A stretch of DNA of 20,000 nt, from IMG/VR virus record IMGVR_UViG_3300042546_000459; one strand, written 5' to 3'. Within the stretch, counting starts at the first letter, position 1. Each line of letters opens with the position of its first letter. The notes under the pieces were generated by a model. That model made no database searches, had not been told where the DNA came from, and was given only the letters and a program-made list of their open reading frames with translations. This DNA comes from an uncultured virus (IMG/VR IMGVR_UViG_3300042546_000459). Taxonomy: Duplodnaviria > Heunggongvirae > Uroviricota > Caudoviricetes. Below, piece by piece: positions 13,665 through 20,000 of the stretch. Both the position numbers and the translations under genes were made by a program.

Positions 13665-14081
13665 ATGTTAGGAACTTGCTCTTATTGTTCGCAAAAGTTT
13701 AAGTACAAACCATCACAACAAAGTGGTAAGTATTGCTCTAACACTTGTCAGCAAGAGATTCAAAAAAGACAAAGGATTTCTGAGTGGTTATCTGGGGGAA
13801 AACTTCCAGGTAAAACTACACTAAGAGAATATCTCACAGAAAAACACGGCTATAAATGTTCGTGCTGTGGGATAACTGAATGGAACAATAACCCAATCAG
13901 TTTAGAGGTTGACCATATTGATGGAAACCCCTATAATGATAGTCCTGACAATCTCAGGTTTATCTGTCCTAACTGTCATTCTCAAACACCTACATATAAG
14001 GCAAAGAATAAAGGTAACGGCAGAGTTCATAGACGTGAGAAAGCAAAATTAGATTTTCATAAACAAAAAATATGCTCCTAA
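13665..14081 (+). CDS. Free-standing HNH (putative homing) endonuclease
   Basis: 138 aa. N-terminal CxxC...YCSxxC zinc-binding motif, then 'CSCCG...LEVDHIDGNPYNDSPDNLRFICPNCHSQT' HNH core. Confidence 0.92.
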   Translation: MLGTCSYCSQKFKYKPSQQSGKYCSNTCQQEIQKRQRISEWLSGGKLPGKTTLREYLTEKHGYKCSCCGITEWNNNPISLEVDHIDGNPYNDSPDNLRFICPNCHSQTPTYKAKNKGNGRVHRREKAKLDFHKQKICS

Positions 14082-14146
14082 AGCATTTAGTGGCGATGTA
14101 CCTGACTTGTAATCAGGAGAGGATGGTTCAATTCCGTCTGGGAGCT
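14074..14146 (+). tRNA. trnT: tRNA-Thr(TGT)
   Basis: Acceptor GCTCCTA/TGGGAGC, D stem GCAT/ATGT, anticodon stem CCTGA/TCAGG with loop CT-TGT-AA (14106-14112), T arm GATGG-TTCAATT-CCGTC. No encoded CCA. Confidence 0.9.
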
Positions 14147-14166: not shown

Positions 14167-14322
14167 ATGTCACTAATTTCACAACGAGATCGAGATGTTG
14201 CTATTGAAGCACTCAATTTTTATATCTTTAGTAAAGGTGTTGATTTTACTGAAGAAAAAAGAATGGAAATCAATGCCCTTATTAATTGGTTGAAGTTGGA
14301 GAAATCTAAGAATGAAAATTAA
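14167..14322 (+). CDS. Small hypothetical protein (51 aa), not in ORF track
   Basis: Manual translation MSLISQRDRDVAIEALNFYIFSKGVDFTEEKRMEINALINWLKLEKSKNEN*. Helical, fills the gap after the tRNA and overlaps the next start. Confidence 0.7.
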   Translation: MSLISQRDRDVAIEALNFYIFSKGVDFTEEKRMEINALINWLKLEKSKNEN

Positions 14323-14476
14323 TTTGTGGTATTGTAAAGATATGAATCAGTGGCGTTGGACATTGACTGATGATTATCGTCCCGTTGTCAAACAGGAATC
14401 TGGTCAGCAACCAGAATTAAGAGTTGCCATGAATGATATCGCAACTACTGTAGAATATATGCTTGACAACCATTAA
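14312..14476 (+). CDS. Small hypothetical protein (54 aa), not in ORF track
   Basis: Manual translation MKINLWYCKDMNQWRWTLTDDYRPVVKQESGQQPELRVAMNDIATTVEYMLDNH*. Overlaps the upstream ORF by 11 nt. Confidence 0.7.
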   Translation: MKINLWYCKDMNQWRWTLTDDYRPVVKQESGQQPELRVAMNDIATTVEYMLDNH

Positions 14477-14491
14477 AATTTCTCTTATAAT
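14463..14491 (+). promoter_or_regulatory. Perfect consensus sigma70 promoter
   Basis: TTGACA (14463-14468), 17 bp, TATAAT (14486-14491). Confidence 0.85.
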
Positions 14492-14497
14492 TAATAA

Positions 14498-14562
14498 TGC
14501 GATACTAATTCGCAGTGACCCAAAAAGTGTGACGGTAGAACCCTCCTTGTGAGGGTTTTATT
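14498..14562 (+). ncRNA. Candidate ~65-nt small RNA
   Basis: Begins at the expected TSS of the consensus promoter. 5' hairpin TGCGA/TCGCA, single-stranded linker, then an intrinsic terminator. No convincing ORF. Confidence 0.55.
14539..14562 (+). terminator. Rho-independent terminator
   Basis: AACCCTC-CTTGT-GAGGGTT followed by TTATT. Confidence 0.75.
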
Positions 14563-14588
14563 GTATTTCTATTGCGGATTTTTAAGTG

Positions 14589-14596
14589 AATAAATA
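14589..14596 (+). promoter_or_regulatory. Late promoter (NATAAATA) for the giant structural gene
   Basis: AATAAATA, intergenic, downstream of the terminator and 29 nt before ATG 14626. Confidence 0.55.
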
Positions 14597-14625
14597 AAAC
14601 ATAATAGAAATCTTAGTATAATAAA

Positions 14626-17600
14626 ATGGGTCTCAGTCGCTTAGATAATTTCTTAAAGAATAGTAGAGGTGATATTATATATGTTGATCCCTCAAGTATA
14701 GATTCAACTGACAGTATTGAGAATCAAGGTAATTCTCTAGTCAGACCCTTTAAAACTATTCAAAGAGCTTTAATAGAAGCAGCAAGATTTTCATATCAAA
14801 GAGGTTTAGATAATGACCGATTTGGTAGAACAACAATTATTGTATATCCAGGTGAGCATTTAATCGATAATAGACCTGGATGGATACCAATTCATGACAA
14901 TCCAGTAGCTGGAAATAATTGGTTAACCAGAGGTGGTGCAGTATCTAATGAATTTCCAGAGTTTAACTTAAATTCCAACTTTGATATTAATAATGATACT
15001 AATGATCTTTATAAAATGAATAGTGTATTCGGGGGTATTATTATTCCTCGTGGTACATCTATTGTTGGTATGGATCTTAGGAAAACTAAAATTAGGGCTA
15101 AATTTATCCCTAATCCAGAAGATGATACTATTGATAGAACATCAATCTTTAGAGTAACTGGTTCTTGTTATTTTTATCAGTTTACGTTTTTTGACGCAGA
15201 CCCAAATAGTGTAGTATTTAAAGATTATGGTCCTACAAAGTTCGTTCCAAATTTTTCACACCATAAACTAACTTGTTTTGAATATGCTGATGGTGTAAAT
15301 CCTGTTATTTTCGATGACCAATATATTACATATAAGACTACAAAAACCGATCTAGATTTATATTATGATAAAATCGCACTTGCATATGGTTCATCTAGTG
15401 GAAGATTAATATCTCCAGATTTTCCAACTGATGGTGTAGATGTACAAACAAAAATTGATGAATATAGAATTGTTGGTTCAAAAGGTCAAAATGTTGGTAT
15501 CACCAGCATTAAGGCGGGTGATGGTGTAGTATCTTCGACTACAATCACCGTTGATATTGAAGAACCAATTGGTGGACTAGATGTAGATACTCCAATTAGA
15601 ATCGAAGGTGTACCTACTGCTGGTTATAATGGACAATATGTTGTAAGCACATCTGAAAGTCCTACTCGAATTACCTATAAAACTTCTTCTTCTCCAGCAA
15701 ATCCGCTTCCTACTATTGTAAGTGGAACACCTACATTAAACATTGTAGTTGATACTGTAACATCAGCTTCTCCATATATCTTTAACTGTTCTCTTAGATC
15801 AGTATTTGGTATGTGTGGTCTTCACGCTGATGGTAGTAAAGCCGATGGATTTAAATCCATGGTTGTTGCCCAGTTTACTGGTATCGGTCTACAAAAAGAC
15901 GATAATGCATTCTTAAAATATAATACTACCTCTGGTGTATATGAAGACAAAACTGCAGTATCGAATATTCACACAAATTCTTCTGCGGTATATAAACCAG
16001 AATACGAAAACTTCCACATTAAAGCATCGAATGATGCATTCTTACAGTTAGTTTCTGTATTTGCTATTGGTTATGCAAATCACTTCTTAGCGGAAAGTGG
16101 TGGTGACCATTCTATTACAAACTCTAACTCAAACTTTGGTGCAAAATCTCTTGTTGCTAGAGGATTTAAAAAAGAAGCGTTCTCAAGAGATGACACTGGA
16201 TTTATAACTCATATTATTCCACCACAAGAAATTCAAAGTGAAGATATTAATGTTGAGTATACTTCTATTGACGTAGAAACAACTGTAGGTATTGGAAGTA
16301 CCACAAGATTATATCTTTATAATGAAACTGATTTAGATAATCCACCACTATCAGTTGTTGATGGATACAGAATTGGTTCTAAAATAAATGATGAATTAAA
16401 GGTTCTTCTTAACATTAACGGGCAATCTACTACAAAAACATCTAAAATTATAATGCCAAATACCCAGTCAACTGGGATTTATGAAAGTTCTTCTTATAAA
16501 GAAGCTGTTGTTGGTAGAACAAATATTGGTATTAATAGTATTTCTTCTAATACTTTTACTTTAACTGCACCTCACCAATTCATACAAGGCGAATCTTTAA
16601 GAGTTTTTAGTAGTGATGGTGAACTTCCTGATGGATTAAATCATAATCAGGTTTATTATGCAATTACTGCTGGAATTAATTCTGACCAAATTAAACTTTC
16701 CCAAACATTTAACGATACAATTACTGAAGATGCAGTAACTGTTAACAACAAAGGTGGCATTTTAACAATTGAAAGTAGAGTATCGGATAAAAAGTCTGGT
16801 GATATTGGGCATCCAATTCAGTTTGATAGTAATATTGGTCAATGGTATCTTACTGTTAGTGGAATATCTAGTTACAATCAAATATACTCTAGTGTTGTTG
16901 GTCTTGGAACTACTACTCTTGGAAGAACAACACCAAGAACATTTATCACTAGAAAGTCTGATACCAGATCATTAATTGATAAAATCTATAAAGTTCGTTA
17001 TGTAATTCCAAAAGATTCTGCAGTTATTGCACGACCACCTAGAGATGGATTCGTAATTCAAGAATCTAATACTACTATTGGTGCTACTCAAGAAGAAATT
17101 GGCAAGTACAATAGTGTTGATGCTGTAATTTTAAATAATTCTTCTGAATTAAGAAATTACAGATTTATATCTAATGCAGTTTGGGATTCTGTTGGTATTG
17201 CTACTCTTACAACTGAAGTTCCACACGAATTATCTGTAGGTTCATTAATTCAAATTAATAACATTAAGTCTGGATTTAACACTACAGGTGTTGGTAATAG
17301 TGGTTTTAATGGTGAATACTTTGTAACTTCAAAACTTTCGAGAAGAGAATTTACAATTGGATTAACTACAAATCCAGGACTATTCCAAAGTGACACCTCT
17401 ATTAGAGACGTAGAGTTACCATATTATAAGAGAGTTAGATTTAATAATACTTTTGTAGTATATAAGTCCGAAGAAATTCAGCAATATGTTCCAAATACAA
17501 AAGATGGTGTTTATCATTTAACTATTATTGATTCTTCAAATTCCCCATCTGTTGAACCATTTACTCAACTAAGATTCTCTCAACCAGTAAAAAATCTTTA

Positions 17601-20000
17601 TCCACAACTAGATAGAGATAATATTACTTCTGACCCAGATCCAACAGTATCTTTTGCATTACCTTCTCCATTAGGATTAGTCGAAGTTAATAATCCAGAG
17701 AATTCTGTTACTAGAGAAAGTATTGTAAAGAGCATTAATGATTTTGCTGTAGGATTTGGATTGACTGATATCCAATCTGCTACTGGATTTGCACATACAT
17801 TATATACTAGAATTGACCATGGATTAAACAGAATTACTAGAGTTGGTATAGTAAGTGCTGGTGAAAATTATGGTTCTGGTTCTGGTTCTATTGAAACTCT
17901 TTATAATGCTAGGTTAGTAGGATTTGCTGGTTCAACAACTGGCAACTATGCAACTGCAAATATTAAAGTTGATGCTTTAGGTAGAATAACTGATGTTAGA
18001 ATTGTTGATGGTGGTTCTGCGTATGGAATTGGTAATACCCTTTCCGTGGTTGGTGTTGGTACAACATTAGGACATATTGTTGGTGTAGTATCTGTAACCC
18101 AAATTAATAATGATATTGGTAATGTAATTTCTATAAGTGGACTATATGATAAAGTATTTGATACTTACAATAATCTTTATAGAATTACTGGAATTAACGT
18201 AGGGCAAACAAATCAAATTCAAGTTACTTCTTCTTCTGAAGTAGTTGCCCAATATCCATTTACTGGTTCTACTGCAATTGCTGGTGTTAATACTAATGGA
18301 TTAAGTAAAATTAATGCAACTTTTTTAAATACTGTCGAGTCTTATGTAACTGGCAATTCTCTTGGAATCACTTCATTTACTTATAACAACTCTACTGGAA
18401 TTGCTAGTGTAACAACATTACAATCTCATGGATTTGTAAATGGTACAAAGTTTAAAATTGGTGGATTTAATCAAAGTCTTTATAATGGTGATTTTATTAC
18501 CACAAAAATTGTTGGATTAAATGATTTTGAATTTAATATTGGTATAGGTACAACTTCTCCAGTATCTTCTGGAATAGCATACATTTATATTCCAGGATTT
18601 GCCGCACAAGGTGGATTATTGGCTGCGGATAATGAAGCAAATTCCAGTAGACTTGTTGCACAATATGCGGGTATTACAACTACTTTGGATGTTGCTTTAG
18701 TAGATCCAACAATCAATACATTGACAGTTACAAATGCATTAAACCGCAATTGGCAAGCTGGGGATTATATTATTGTAAACAAAGAAATAATGCGTATTAG
18801 TGAAACTGTCGTAATTGACACTGCAATAGATGTATTCCGTGGATTGTTTGGAACTTCAAAACAAGTACATCCTGCTGGATCTGTTGTTAGAAGAGTAAGA
18901 TTTAAACCAATTGAATTTAGAAGAAACTCTATTCTACGTGCTTCTGGTCATACTTTTGAATATCTGGGTTATGGTCCAGGTAACTACTCTACAGCACTTC
19001 CAGAAAGACAAGATAGACAATTTATTGATGTTGAAAGAGTCTTATCACAGTCTGTAAGTGATGATGGTGGAACTCCAATTTATAATGGATTGGACGATAA
19101 TGGTAATACATATACAGTTAATAAACTAACAAATGCTTCTACTGGTCAAGATTTATTAACTAAAGCACCAATCCCAACTGTCAGGGGTGAAGATATTACA
19201 TCGAATACACAAGCAGTTGGATTTGATGTAGATTCCACTGATGATTTAACAGTTGCTAGAGGTTTAAAGGTTGAGGGTGGTTCTGAGTCTACTATTATTT
19301 CTGAATTTAACGGTCCCGTAATCTTTACCGAAAAAATAACATCGACTTCTGAAGATGGTATTTTGGCATCATCGTTATTCCTTCAAGGAGAATCGACAAC
19401 TTCTAGAAAATATACCGTAGGAATTGCTACTCCACTATTATCTGGTAATGCTGGAGATATTGTTTATAAAGCAGATCCTAATGGCGGTGTTGCTGTTGGA
19501 TGGGTTTATACTTTAGAGAATTCCTGGCAAGAATTTGGTCCTATTAAATCTGTAGGAACTGAAAGATATTGTGGTATCTTTAGTGGTGCATTTGTTGGTG
19601 ATGGTTCTGGTCTTGATAATGTATCTGATGTTTGGGTGTTCGATGGTATTGGTATCTCTACCACAAGAGCTGTTGGTATGGGAACAACTACATCTGTTCC
19701 AAGCGTTGCACTATATGTTGGTGGTAATGCAATTTTTGCTGGTGTTACAACAATTAGAACAAATCAGCTAACATTTGATGTTCCAAATGGATTCCTCGTT
19801 AATACAGGTATAACAACCTTTAATCAGCAAGTTAATGTTAATACATTAAGAGCGATTGGTATTTCTACATTCCAAAATGACGTTATTATTACAACAAATC
19901 CAGCAACAACTGGAGATACTGCAGGTAACTTCTTAAGATTTGTTCAATCTGATACCGCAATTACTTCTGCTTATCAATATGGGGGAATTAATTGGGAGGG
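14626..20000 (+). CDS. Giant tail fibre / virion structural protein, 3'-truncated (>1790 aa), absent from ORF track
   Basis: ATG 14626 gives MGLSRLDNFLKNSRGDIIYVDP...GNSLVRPFKTIQRALIEA (beta-helix-type N-terminal motif). Spot checks show the frame open to the end (...YGGINWE). It has repeated 'T..PH....G..I.I.G...YNG.Y.V' modules and late 'FVGDGSGL', 'GITTF', 'GISTF' fibre repeats. Confidence 0.9.
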   Translation, partial: MGLSRLDNFLKNSRGDIIYVDPSSIDSTDSIENQGNSLVRPFKTIQRALIEAARFSYQRGLDNDRFGRTTIIVYPGEHLIDNRPGWIPIHDNPVAGNNWLTRGGAVSNEFPEFNLNSNFDINNDTNDLYKMNSVFGGIIIPRGTSIVGMDLRKTKIRAKFIPNPEDDTIDRTSIFRVTGSCYFYQFTFFDADPNSVVFKDYGPTKFVPNFSHHKLTCFEYADGVNPVIFDDQYITYKTTKTDLDLYYDKIALAYGSSSGRLISPDFPTDGVDVQTKIDEYRIVGSKGQNVGITSIKAGDGVVSSTTITVDIEEPIGGLDVDTPIRIEGVPTAGYNGQYVVSTSESPTRITYKTSSSPANPLPTIVSGTPTLNIVVDTVTSASPYIFNCSLRSVFGMCGLHADGSKADGFKSMVVAQFTGIGLQKDDNAFLKYNTTSGVYEDKTAVSNIHTNSSAVYKPEYENFHIKASNDAFLQLVSVFAIGYANHFLAESGGDHSITNSNSNFGAKSLVARGFKKEAFSRDDTGFITHIIPPQEIQSEDINVEYTSIDVETTVGIGSTTRLYLYNETDLDNPPLSVVDGYRIGSKINDELKVLLNINGQSTTKTSKIIMPNTQSTGIYESSSYKEAVVGRTNIGINSISSNTFTLTAPHQFIQGESLRVFSSDGELPDGLNHNQVYYAITAGINSDQIKLSQTFNDTITEDAVTVNNKGGILTIESRVSDKKSGDIGHPIQFDSNIGQWYLTVSGISSYNQIYSSVVGLGTTTLGRTTPRTFITRKSDTRSLIDKIYKVRYVIPKDSAVIARPPRDGFVIQESNTTIGATQEEIGKYNSVDAVILNNSSELRNYRFISNAVWDSVGIATLTTEVPHELSVGSLIQINNIKSGFNTTGVGNSGFNGEYFVTSKLSRREFTIGLTTNPGLFQSDTSIRDVELPYYKRVRFNNTFVVYKSEEIQQYVPNTKDGVYHLTIIDSSNSPSVEPFTQLRFSQPVKNLYPQLDRDNITSDPDPTVSFALPSPLGLVEVNNPENSVTRESIVKSINDFAVGFGLTDIQSATGFAHTLYTRIDHGLNRITRVGIVSAGENYGSGSGSIETLYNARLVGFAGSTTGNYATANIKVDALGRITDVRIVDGGSAYGIGNTLSVVGVGTTLGHIVGVVSVTQINNDIGNVISISGLYDKVFDTYNNLYRITGINVGQTNQIQVTSSSEVVAQYPFTGSTAIAGVNTNGLSKINATFLNTVESYVTGNSLGITSFTYNNSTGIASVTTLQSHGFVNGTKFKIGGFNQSLYNGDFITTKIVGLNDFEFNIGIGTTSPVSSGIAYIYIPGFAAQGGLLAADNEANSSRLVAQYAGITTTLDVALVDPTINTLTVTNALNRNWQAGDYIIVNKEIMRISETVVIDTAIDVFRGLFGTSKQVHPAGSVVRRVRFKPIEFRRNSILRASGHTFEYLGYGPGNYSTALPERQDRQFIDVERVLSQSVSDDGGTPIYNGLDDNGNTYTVNKLTNASTGQDLLTKAPIPTVRGEDITSNTQAVGFDVDSTDDLTVARGLKVEGGSESTIISEFNGPVIFTEKITSTSEDGILASSLFLQGESTTSRKYTVGIATPLLSGNAGDIVYKADPNGGVAVGWVYTLENSWQEFGPIKSVGTERYCGIFSGAFVGDGSGLDNVSDVWVFDGIGISTTRAVGMGTTTSVPSVALYVGGNAIFAGVTTIRTNQLTFDVPNGFLVNTGITTFNQQVNVNTLRAIGISTFQNDVIITTNPATTGDTAGNFLRFVQSDTAITSAYQYGGINWE

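Follow-up and report, generated by a model that had tools for sequence, protein, structure and literature searches.

The RNA gene described here resembles the cyanobacterial small RNAs Yfr1 (RF01116) and Yfr2/Cyano-1 (RF01701) in its size and in its hairpin-linker-terminator layout, according to the accessible text of their descriptions (PMC2190773, PMC2518516, PMC6778093). Yfr2 offers a further likeness, in that it inactivates a second small RNA by base-pairing to a CACAC-containing stretch left exposed there (accessible text of PMC2518516 and PMC6778093). The unit differs from both in having neither the ACUCCUCACAC motif nor the GUGAGGAG 5' motif, in being encoded by a phage, and in carrying 28 nt of complementarity to a tRNA. 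The phage and prophage base-pairing RNAs and sponges SprY, OOP, sar, and CfrI (PMC12197685, in its accessible part) are similar as stand-alone phage RNA genes with predicted base pairing in trans. Unlike the unit, however, they target mRNAs or sRNAs, and the accessible part of that 2025 review does not contain the word tRNA. The attP copies of tRNA halves in temperate phages share sequence identity with part of a host tRNA gene. In contrast to the unit, they are contiguous and exact and sit beside an integrase, with no promoter-terminator pair on the antisense strand.

T-box riboswitches are large cis-acting leaders that form 3-4 nt of pairing at each end of an intact tRNA. The unit is comparable in that it would contact a tRNA both at its anticodon and close to its 3' end; by contrast, it stands alone at 65 nt and would unfold half the tRNA. 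T-even phages cleave host tRNA-Leu(CAG). Here the likeness is that a host tRNA for a G-ending codon is eliminated or circumvented by an AT-rich phage, which supplies its own isoacceptor; known tRNA removal is the work of protein nucleases, whereas the agent of the unit would be an antisense RNA. The tRNA genes of phages are described as serving codon compensation or escape (PMC11726456; PMC10264068). Our full-text literature search, judged on titles and the starts of abstracts and mostly covering papers outside subscription, returned nothing that describes a phage RNA complementary to a host tRNA. The RNA reported here is very probably aimed at tRNA-Val(CAC), which appears to be the target of no described family. 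It would act in the manner of a base-pairing sponge and is neither Yfr1, Yfr2, nor an att site.

We analysed a window of 20,000 nucleotides, which corresponds to positions 55699-75698 of a complete virus genome of 246,502 bases (G+C 33.8%). The source virus is a T4-like cyanophage. Its genome encodes 27 tRNA genes and one tmRNA, psbA, and the cyanophage RNA motifs wcaG and PhotoRC-II, and the relatives of its tail fibre among cultured phages (461 records) are all cyanophage or marine-virus records. The tmRNA is of the permuted cyanobacterial kind and, like the wcaG and PhotoRC-II RNAs, lies outside the window (L341:3149-3412, L341:8674-8777, and L340:169-263, respectively); the tRNA genes include an odd Arg(GCG) call. 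Because the 91-93% matches of PsbA include Cyanobium and Synechococcus records, a genome titled Cyanobium (G001) was used for host comparisons, which thus refer to a stand-in.

The unit lies on the plus strand, as do the genes on either side of it. It starts with a sigma70-type promoter at 14463-14491 (TTGACA at 14463-14468, a 17-nt spacer, and TATAAT at 14486-14491), whose -35 box falls within the last codons of a 54-aa ORF (phrog_2818, 14312-14476). The first-pass annotation had called this promoter perfect, and it is indeed the sole 12-of-12 site in the window and one of five perfect sigma70 sites in the 246.5-kb genome; a looser class of promoter occurs at chance level (90 found versus 96 expected). 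The predicted small RNA, which we call type A, runs from 14497 to 14564 (about 65-68 nt, with ends placed from promoter and terminator). Its proposed hairpin-linker-hairpin shape was recovered: a predicted 5' hairpin of 5 bp with a 7-nt loop (TGCGA-TACTAAT-TCGCA, 14498-14514), a linker, and a 14-pair intrinsic-terminator hairpin (14532-14564) with a G+C core at 14541-14555 and a U-rich 3' side at 14556-14562. The motif GUGUGA was found where it had been placed, at 14527-14532. The terminator U tract can also pair back with 14532-14540. The fold has a z of -4.4, matched by 0 of 200 shuffles. No open frame with both start and stop lies inside the unit, and no second copy was found elsewhere in the phage genome. 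RNA data comprised one contig-level run with three 151-nt records, none overlapping the unit. Candidate DNA-level NtcA, CRP, or pho boxes, judged by eye against consensus sequences, were dropped, as they explain neither the promoter-terminator frame nor the tRNA match.

Downstream lies the tail fibre gene (phrog_529), which extends from 14626 past the window end at 20000. It marks the slot and is outside the RNA unit. As had been claimed, this gene has a motif of its own, TAAATAAA at 14591-14598 ahead of the ATG at 14626, which corresponds to the T4-type late-promoter motif of T4-like phages.

The unit is gained and lost as a module. We selected slots by the fibre protein alone, giving 80 loci, 79 of them usable and 64 distinct. 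An RNA of this family is present in 31 of the 64 distinct slots and absent from 33; a promoter accompanies it in 25/31 slots versus 0/33 without the RNA, and a terminator in 29/31 versus 1/33, although these slots, like the alignment rows below, come from related genomes and are not independent events. The fibre TAAATA motif is kept in 64/64 slots, whether the unit is there or not. Since promoter, RNA, and terminator track together slot by slot, the unit is gained and lost whole and is not a leader of the fibre gene, which bears out the earlier description of it as self-contained and speaks against its being the fibre gene's 5' UTR.

Type A is conserved beyond chance. The first-pass annotation had proposed looking for conserved linkers and stems in related phages, and both exist: the linker 19-mer (14515-14533) is exact in 42 IMG/VR viral contigs representing 29 distinct contexts, and the terminator helix covaries, pairing in 97.6% of 330 cells with 29 two-sided changes (0/500 shuffles as good; slid controls 42-67%). 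The outermost pair of the back-paired U tract shows a two-sided change in eight rows, which suggests a protected 3' end. The 5' hairpin is present in the predicted fold of 33/33 type A rows, with arm variants GCGA/UCGC, ACGA/UCGU, GACGA/UCGUC, and GUGA/UCGC; RNAalifold missed it because MAFFT misaligned the 3' arm. A sigma70-like promoter was detected by pattern in 29 of 33 distinct type A RNAs, one of them doubtful, and is kept despite divergent spacers. The genes upstream vary among contigs. Relatives that keep the RNA have other ORFs or a tRNA gene in place of the 54-aa ORF, one copy sits directly after a tRNA gene, and at least three copies precede a gene other than the fibre (L099, L106, L122). 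In many relatives (L081, L083, L084, L086, and others), the -35 box lies inside the end of a different, longer ORF, which precedes types A, B, C, and D (described below) alike.

Database searches yielded no known family. Rfam, suggested earlier as a check, gave no family for the unit: the only matches in the window were two tRNAs, and the best E-values were 1-8. Rfam 15 likewise gave no match on units of types A-D in 20 + 14 further sources. BLASTN of 14440-14630 against 50,697 phage records found no match covering more than 28% of the query, and the exact type A linker occurs in 0/151 host genomes, with five one-mismatch matches. What marks a trans-acting RNA is nevertheless found here, namely a promoter and terminator of its own, no reading frame, and conserved, specific complementarity. 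We regard the unit as almost certainly a real, conserved RNA gene.

The 5' half of the RNA is complementary to a host tRNA. We find that 28 of the first 34 nt of the type A RNA form Watson-Crick pairs with picocyanobacterial tRNA-Val(CAC), in four ordered blocks. An 8-nt block (14499-14506) faces gene positions 62-69, the 3' strand of the T stem plus acceptor stem; a 5-nt block (14508-14512) faces positions 55-59 in the T loop; and a 9-nt block (14513-14521) faces positions 43-51, the variable loop and 5' T-stem strand. A spacer of five A's (14522-14526) then lies opposite the 3' strand of the anticodon stem, equal to it in length and not complementary. It is AAAAA in 14 of 18 distinct type A cores and always 5 nt long. 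Finally, GUGUGA faces positions 32-37, the anticodon loop with CAC included; this is the part common to all types and likely the toehold. In most type A members a weak internal hairpin of the linker can half hide it (unpaired probability about 0.35), compared with 0.70 in the window RNA.

Predicted energies place tRNA-Val(CAC) first. The window RNA forms a duplex of -43.7 kcal/mol with it, rank 1 among the 39 tRNAs found in the stand-in host (a sample of its full set), the other 38 of which average -20.0 +/- 4.1 kcal/mol. Host Val(GAC) reaches -33.4, phage Val(UAC) -29.6, host Val(UAC) -20.9, and Yfr1 -14.8 kcal/mol. With both folds subtracted, the net energies are -12.0 for Val(CAC), -9.8 for Val(GAC), -7.0 for Yfr1, -3.9 for phage Val(UAC), and 0 for host Val(UAC), in models that treat the tRNA as unmodified and without tertiary structure. 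Of 300 dinucleotide shuffles, none attains -43.7 even with the best of the 39 tRNAs. Outside tRNA genes, the window RNA is the phage genome's best match to the Val(CAC) complement, and Val(CAC) is top by duplex energy in 18/18 distinct type A and 26/26 type B cores. Among the distinct slots, antisense to Val(CAC) occurs in 31/64 on the transcribed strand and in 0/64 on the opposite strand.

The complementary blocks are more conserved than the surrounding terminator and promoter spacer. Within blocks, C>U and A>G predominate among the changes, and both preserve G-U pairs: one acceptor-facing place has C>U in 8/44 cores, and wobble-keeping AACCA variants occur in 5/26 type B cores. Such changes point to pairing, in a test that was partial because letters fixed by the search patterns could not vary. 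Pair-breaking changes sit at block edges (8/44 at each end of the first block; 3/26 at one type B edge).

The proposed partner is widespread among potential hosts. Of 121 Cyanobiaceae genomes, 86 carry the tRNA-Val(CAC) core; among the 35 that lack it, 30 are no larger than 2.0 Mb, and we read these small genomes as mostly Prochlorococcus. ARAGORN called tRNA-Val(CAC) at 17/17 loci given to it, out of 30 fetched. Of 27 host copies extracted from these 30 loci, 25 share one sequence; another departs from it in its called ends alone, and the last has one changed base in the T loop. On these sequence comparisons, host tRNA-Val(CAC) is very likely the pairing partner of the type A RNA. The host tRNA itself is unusual: its 4-bp D stem is interrupted midway by an A-C mismatch in 27/27 copies (L465-L494; L519, G001:C8:235511-235582), unlike the fully paired D stems of host Val(GAC) and Val(UAC). 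The mismatch may ease invasion of Val(CAC) or mark a special role.

Specificity for one isoacceptor is clearer for the sister types than for type A, in which Val(GAC) appears to be a close second target. Across the 33 type A RNAs, net energy ranks Val(CAC) first in 16 and Val(GAC) first in 17 (means -12.0 and -11.6), and plain identity scoring puts Val(GAC) one point above Val(CAC) for the window RNA. In the slots free of search patterns, the two letters that distinguish these tRNAs fit CAC, and types B-D have CAC-specific complementarity. Disabling Val(GAC) would also affect GUU, the commonest Val codon of the phage. A search for Val(GAC)-specific units returned 16 matches, of which one was a true tRNA gene and none, by eye, had the promoter-terminator layout. 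Antisense units against other tRNAs were absent from 107 intergenic stretches of the phage genome; by plain identity scoring the unit was the top site (41, to Val(GAC)) and the next scored 35. None of 19 matches in a Pro(CGG) antisense search was a unit. A metagenome scan gave no type A unit among the matches listed, 95 of 122 being true tRNA genes.

RNAs of other types occupy the same slot and complement the same tRNA. The 31 filled slots hold 18 RNAs of type C or D, 7 of type B, 5 of type A, and 1 unassigned; GUGUG is common to types A, B, C, and D. Type B (26 distinct cores) has the first and last motifs of type A with a different middle and is complementary to the 3' anticodon strand and the acceptor of tRNA-Val(CAC). 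Type C, found in at least 120 contigs, consists of a 16-nt head, an exact antisense 16-mer to tRNA-Val(CAC) from the anticodon loop through the D stem, followed by a terminator. Among the matches listed, 55 lie ahead of the fibre gene, and the rest follow the major capsid gene or belong to tRNA clusters; several copies sit behind a late-promoter motif. Type D (28 contigs, 21 distinct) extends type C, and its antisense continues to the 5' D strand. The covered parts of the tRNA thus differ yet overlap, and every type retains the anticodon-loop block. A full antisense copy of tRNA-Val(CAC) would, by predicted fold, form a mirror cloverleaf. One strand of the mirror anticodon stem is missing in types A and B and most of type C, and type D keeps part of it, so that the anticodon-loop block is left open. 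Some long type C variants (L230, L243, L254, L274, L280) have the head, then a conserved structured tail and directly a tRNA gene, with no terminator; Rfam gave no match on this tail.

Type C also occurs in cultured phages. In a hand-picked sample of 17 cyanophages, the exact head with terminator is present in 5/10 Synechococcus phages (Syn9, Syn19, Syn33, S-SM1, and S-SM2) versus 0/7 phages recorded from Prochlorococcus. The copies of Syn9 (NC_008296) and S-SM2 (NC_015279) are located around positions 119,424 and 22,968, respectively. BLASTN with 33 nt of the tRNA complement, a search that misses matches below 17 nt, returned 129 records, 90 of them named Synechococcus phage and 0 named Prochlorococcus phage. 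In phage S-RSM4, 16 nt within a tRNA cluster match the complement of the Val(CAC) variable loop and anticodon arm (L609, W14:C1:29609-29620, minus strand); the part matched belongs to the 3' side of the tRNA, and the layout is unlike types A-D.

Codon use suggests what the phage could gain. GUG makes up 53% of Val codons in the stand-in host (145 ORFs, 240 kb of G001) versus 7% in the phage (191 ORFs), in which GUU and GUA together account for 85% and whose own tRNAs include Val(UAC) but not Val(CAC). All five type C carriers have tRNA-Val(UAC), four of them among only 5-6 tRNAs. Codon reasons by themselves account for how common this tRNA is among cyanophages, and S-PM2 has it with the type C pattern absent. 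Predicted pairing of the type C head with the carriers' own Val(UAC) ranges from -13.8 to -23.0, versus -30.6 for the predicted target. In Synechococcus WH5701, host Val(UAC) was below detection (accessible text of PMC11726456), which would leave GUG to Val(CAC).

On balance, we favour the reading that this phage small RNA base-pairs with host tRNA-Val(CAC) and disables it for translation. Host RNA polymerase would transcribe the RNA early from the consensus promoter. From the computed complementarity, GUGUGA would pair first with the open anticodon loop, after which the five A's would bridge the anticodon stem and the other three blocks would invade the T arm and acceptor stem; the 5' hairpin would have to open before the outer blocks could reach the tRNA. 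The opened tRNA, or its precursor, might then be blocked in maturation, charging, or delivery, or be degraded. GUG-rich host mRNAs would slow, while phage mRNAs would use GUU, GUA, and their own tRNA-Val(UAC). The late-promoter motif before several type C copies is harder to reconcile with early shut-off. The RNA family may well have arisen from a captured, inverted tRNA half. More broadly, we lean slightly towards a scenario in which T4-like phages of Synechococcus and Cyanobium repeatedly made anti-tRNA RNAs from captured, inverted Val(CAC) pieces, trimmed to avoid a mirror cloverleaf and free an anticodon-loop toehold, which would remove one host tRNA by strand invasion without a protein and shift translation in favour of AT-rich phage mRNA.

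The RNA could also pair with tRNA-Val(CAC) to another end, such as blocking a defence or signalling role of the tRNA, shielding it from a host nuclease, or targeting its gene or precursor where competing elements would integrate. We consider such a non-codon aim unlikely but the main rival. Host-to-phage codon ratios are 42 for CGG, 32 for CCG, and 17 for CUG, against 7.7 for GUG, and three tests turned up no matching RNA for these larger gaps, so codon logic alone leaves the choice of a single tRNA unexplained. The conserved, unusual D-stem mismatch of Val(CAC) and the seemingly late expression of some sister copies favour the same reading, as do Val(CAC) halves that occur as att-like copies in metagenomes and beside an integrase in another phage. 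However, no defence gene or partner protein accompanies the unit, whose flanking genes vary, and a duplex over the anticodon and acceptor stem would disable the tRNA whichever purpose it served. As for a DNA target, the gaps between blocks coincide with tRNA stems and loops, which is a better fit to a folded RNA.

It is far less probable that the RNA acts as a decoy for a host RNA-binding protein, with tRNA complementarity merely its origin. An invariant linker with a weak internal hairpin whose five pairs never vary would suit such a decoy, as would the C after GUGUGA, which is invariant in 33/33 RNAs and unpaired with the tRNA. Yet types A-D share only GUGUG and differ in their folds, while each complements its own part of one tRNA; the wobble-keeping changes indicate pairing, and the AC after GUGUG is accounted for by pairing with the 3' tail.

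Just as improbable is a decaying relic, an inverted piece of tRNA gene or att site caught between the promoter and terminator of its neighbours. Like att copies, the four blocks together cover one half of the tRNA, here the 3' half, and such a capture could be how the RNA began. Copies of att type, however, are contiguous, exact, and reach the tRNA end, as in the best 70 of 96 Leu(CAG) contexts and in Val(CAC) copies, one of them with an integrase beside it, whereas the unit is gapped, with four blocks and a 5-nt mismatch. Slots without the RNA, moreover, lack its supposed frame (promoter 0/33, terminator 1/33). A search for tyrosine-type integrases (PF00589) found none in the complete phage genome. 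The Leu(CAG) 16-mer gave at least 120 rows in 96 distinct contexts among the matches listed, the best 70 of which are all att-type. At least 120 viral contigs (L794-L913) carry an exact 5' half of picocyanobacterial tRNA-Leu(CAG) that ends at the anticodon loop, in the form of an att site.

The likeness to Yfr1 noted in the first-pass annotation holds for layout (54-69 nt, 5' stem-loop, 16-20 nt linker, terminator, according to the accessible text of PMC2190773) and fails for the motif: ACUCCUCACAC is absent from the unit and from the whole phage genome, and RF01116 has no match at E<=10. The reported match of GUGUGA to the Yfr1 motif is genuine and limited to 6 nt, and arises because that motif shares UCACAC with the Val(CAC) anticodon loop. 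The suggestion that the RNA is a sponge or partner of Yfr1 fared poorly, as the duplex with Cyanobium Yfr1 is worth -14.8 kcal/mol versus -43.7 for tRNA-Val(CAC). Yfr2/Cyano-1 is marked by a conserved loop motif and by a 5' motif that complements the entire Yfr1 motif; a test for these features found only GUGUGA, internal rather than at the 5' end, and no Rfam match.

That the unit is a Yfr1 sponge mimicking the Yfr2 5' end is a most improbable reading: Yfr2 neutralises Yfr1 through a 5' motif starting with GUGUG (accessible text of PMC2518516 and PMC6778093), Yfr1 is present in 86/101 host-family genomes and comes fourth by net energy for the window RNA (-7.0), and the type C 16-mer can pair with it using two bulges (-18.9), but Yfr1 pairs with 6 nt of the window RNA and leaves the other 22 paired nt without a partner, the two "extra" A's of type C fit the tRNA exactly, and the GTGAGGAG carried by host Yfr2 5' ends at 8/9 loci, or the GTGAGGAA of the ninth, is found in no phage type. 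The sponge was dropped once a chance match to the type C pattern (L265) was recognised as a tRNA-Val(CAC) gene read from the opposite strand. The Yfr1 motif and its 5' neighbours equal the D-stem-to-anticodon stretch of Val(CAC) minus two U's (Yfr1, L422-L464; Yfr2, L427-L435), and host Yfr2 5' ends are therefore near-antisense to Val(CAC) too. The resemblance of the Yfr1 motif to this arm of the tRNA may belong to the same conflict. One host Yfr1 locus (L447, G098:C1:688510-688592) is a long inverted repeat, which gives a second Yfr1-like copy on the other strand.

Targeting of tRNA-Val(CAC) by the phage RNA would bear on host shut-off by T4-like cyanophages and on the reason for their tRNA genes. 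If it is true, tRNAs would join the targets of natural base-pairing RNAs, and the unit would give phage biology a first natural example of a tRNA inhibited by antisense pairing. Phage tRNA-Val(UAC) would gain a rationale beyond codon supply, and the RNA could mark host types by whether they possess Val(CAC) and serve as a compact natural design for codon-specific control of translation in cyanobacteria. The predicted target is single, one tRNA and one codon, and sister copies exist in the cultured phages Syn9, S-SM1, S-SM2, Syn19, and Syn33. The window itself contributes type A, whose four blocks leave out the anticodon stem, together with module gain and loss at the level of the slot and the caveat of CAC versus GAC.

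Upstream of the unit, the window contains an HNH endonuclease gene (13665-14081) whose last codons overlap the start of a tRNA-Thr(UGU) gene (14074-14146), a possible homing element that uses the tRNA gene.
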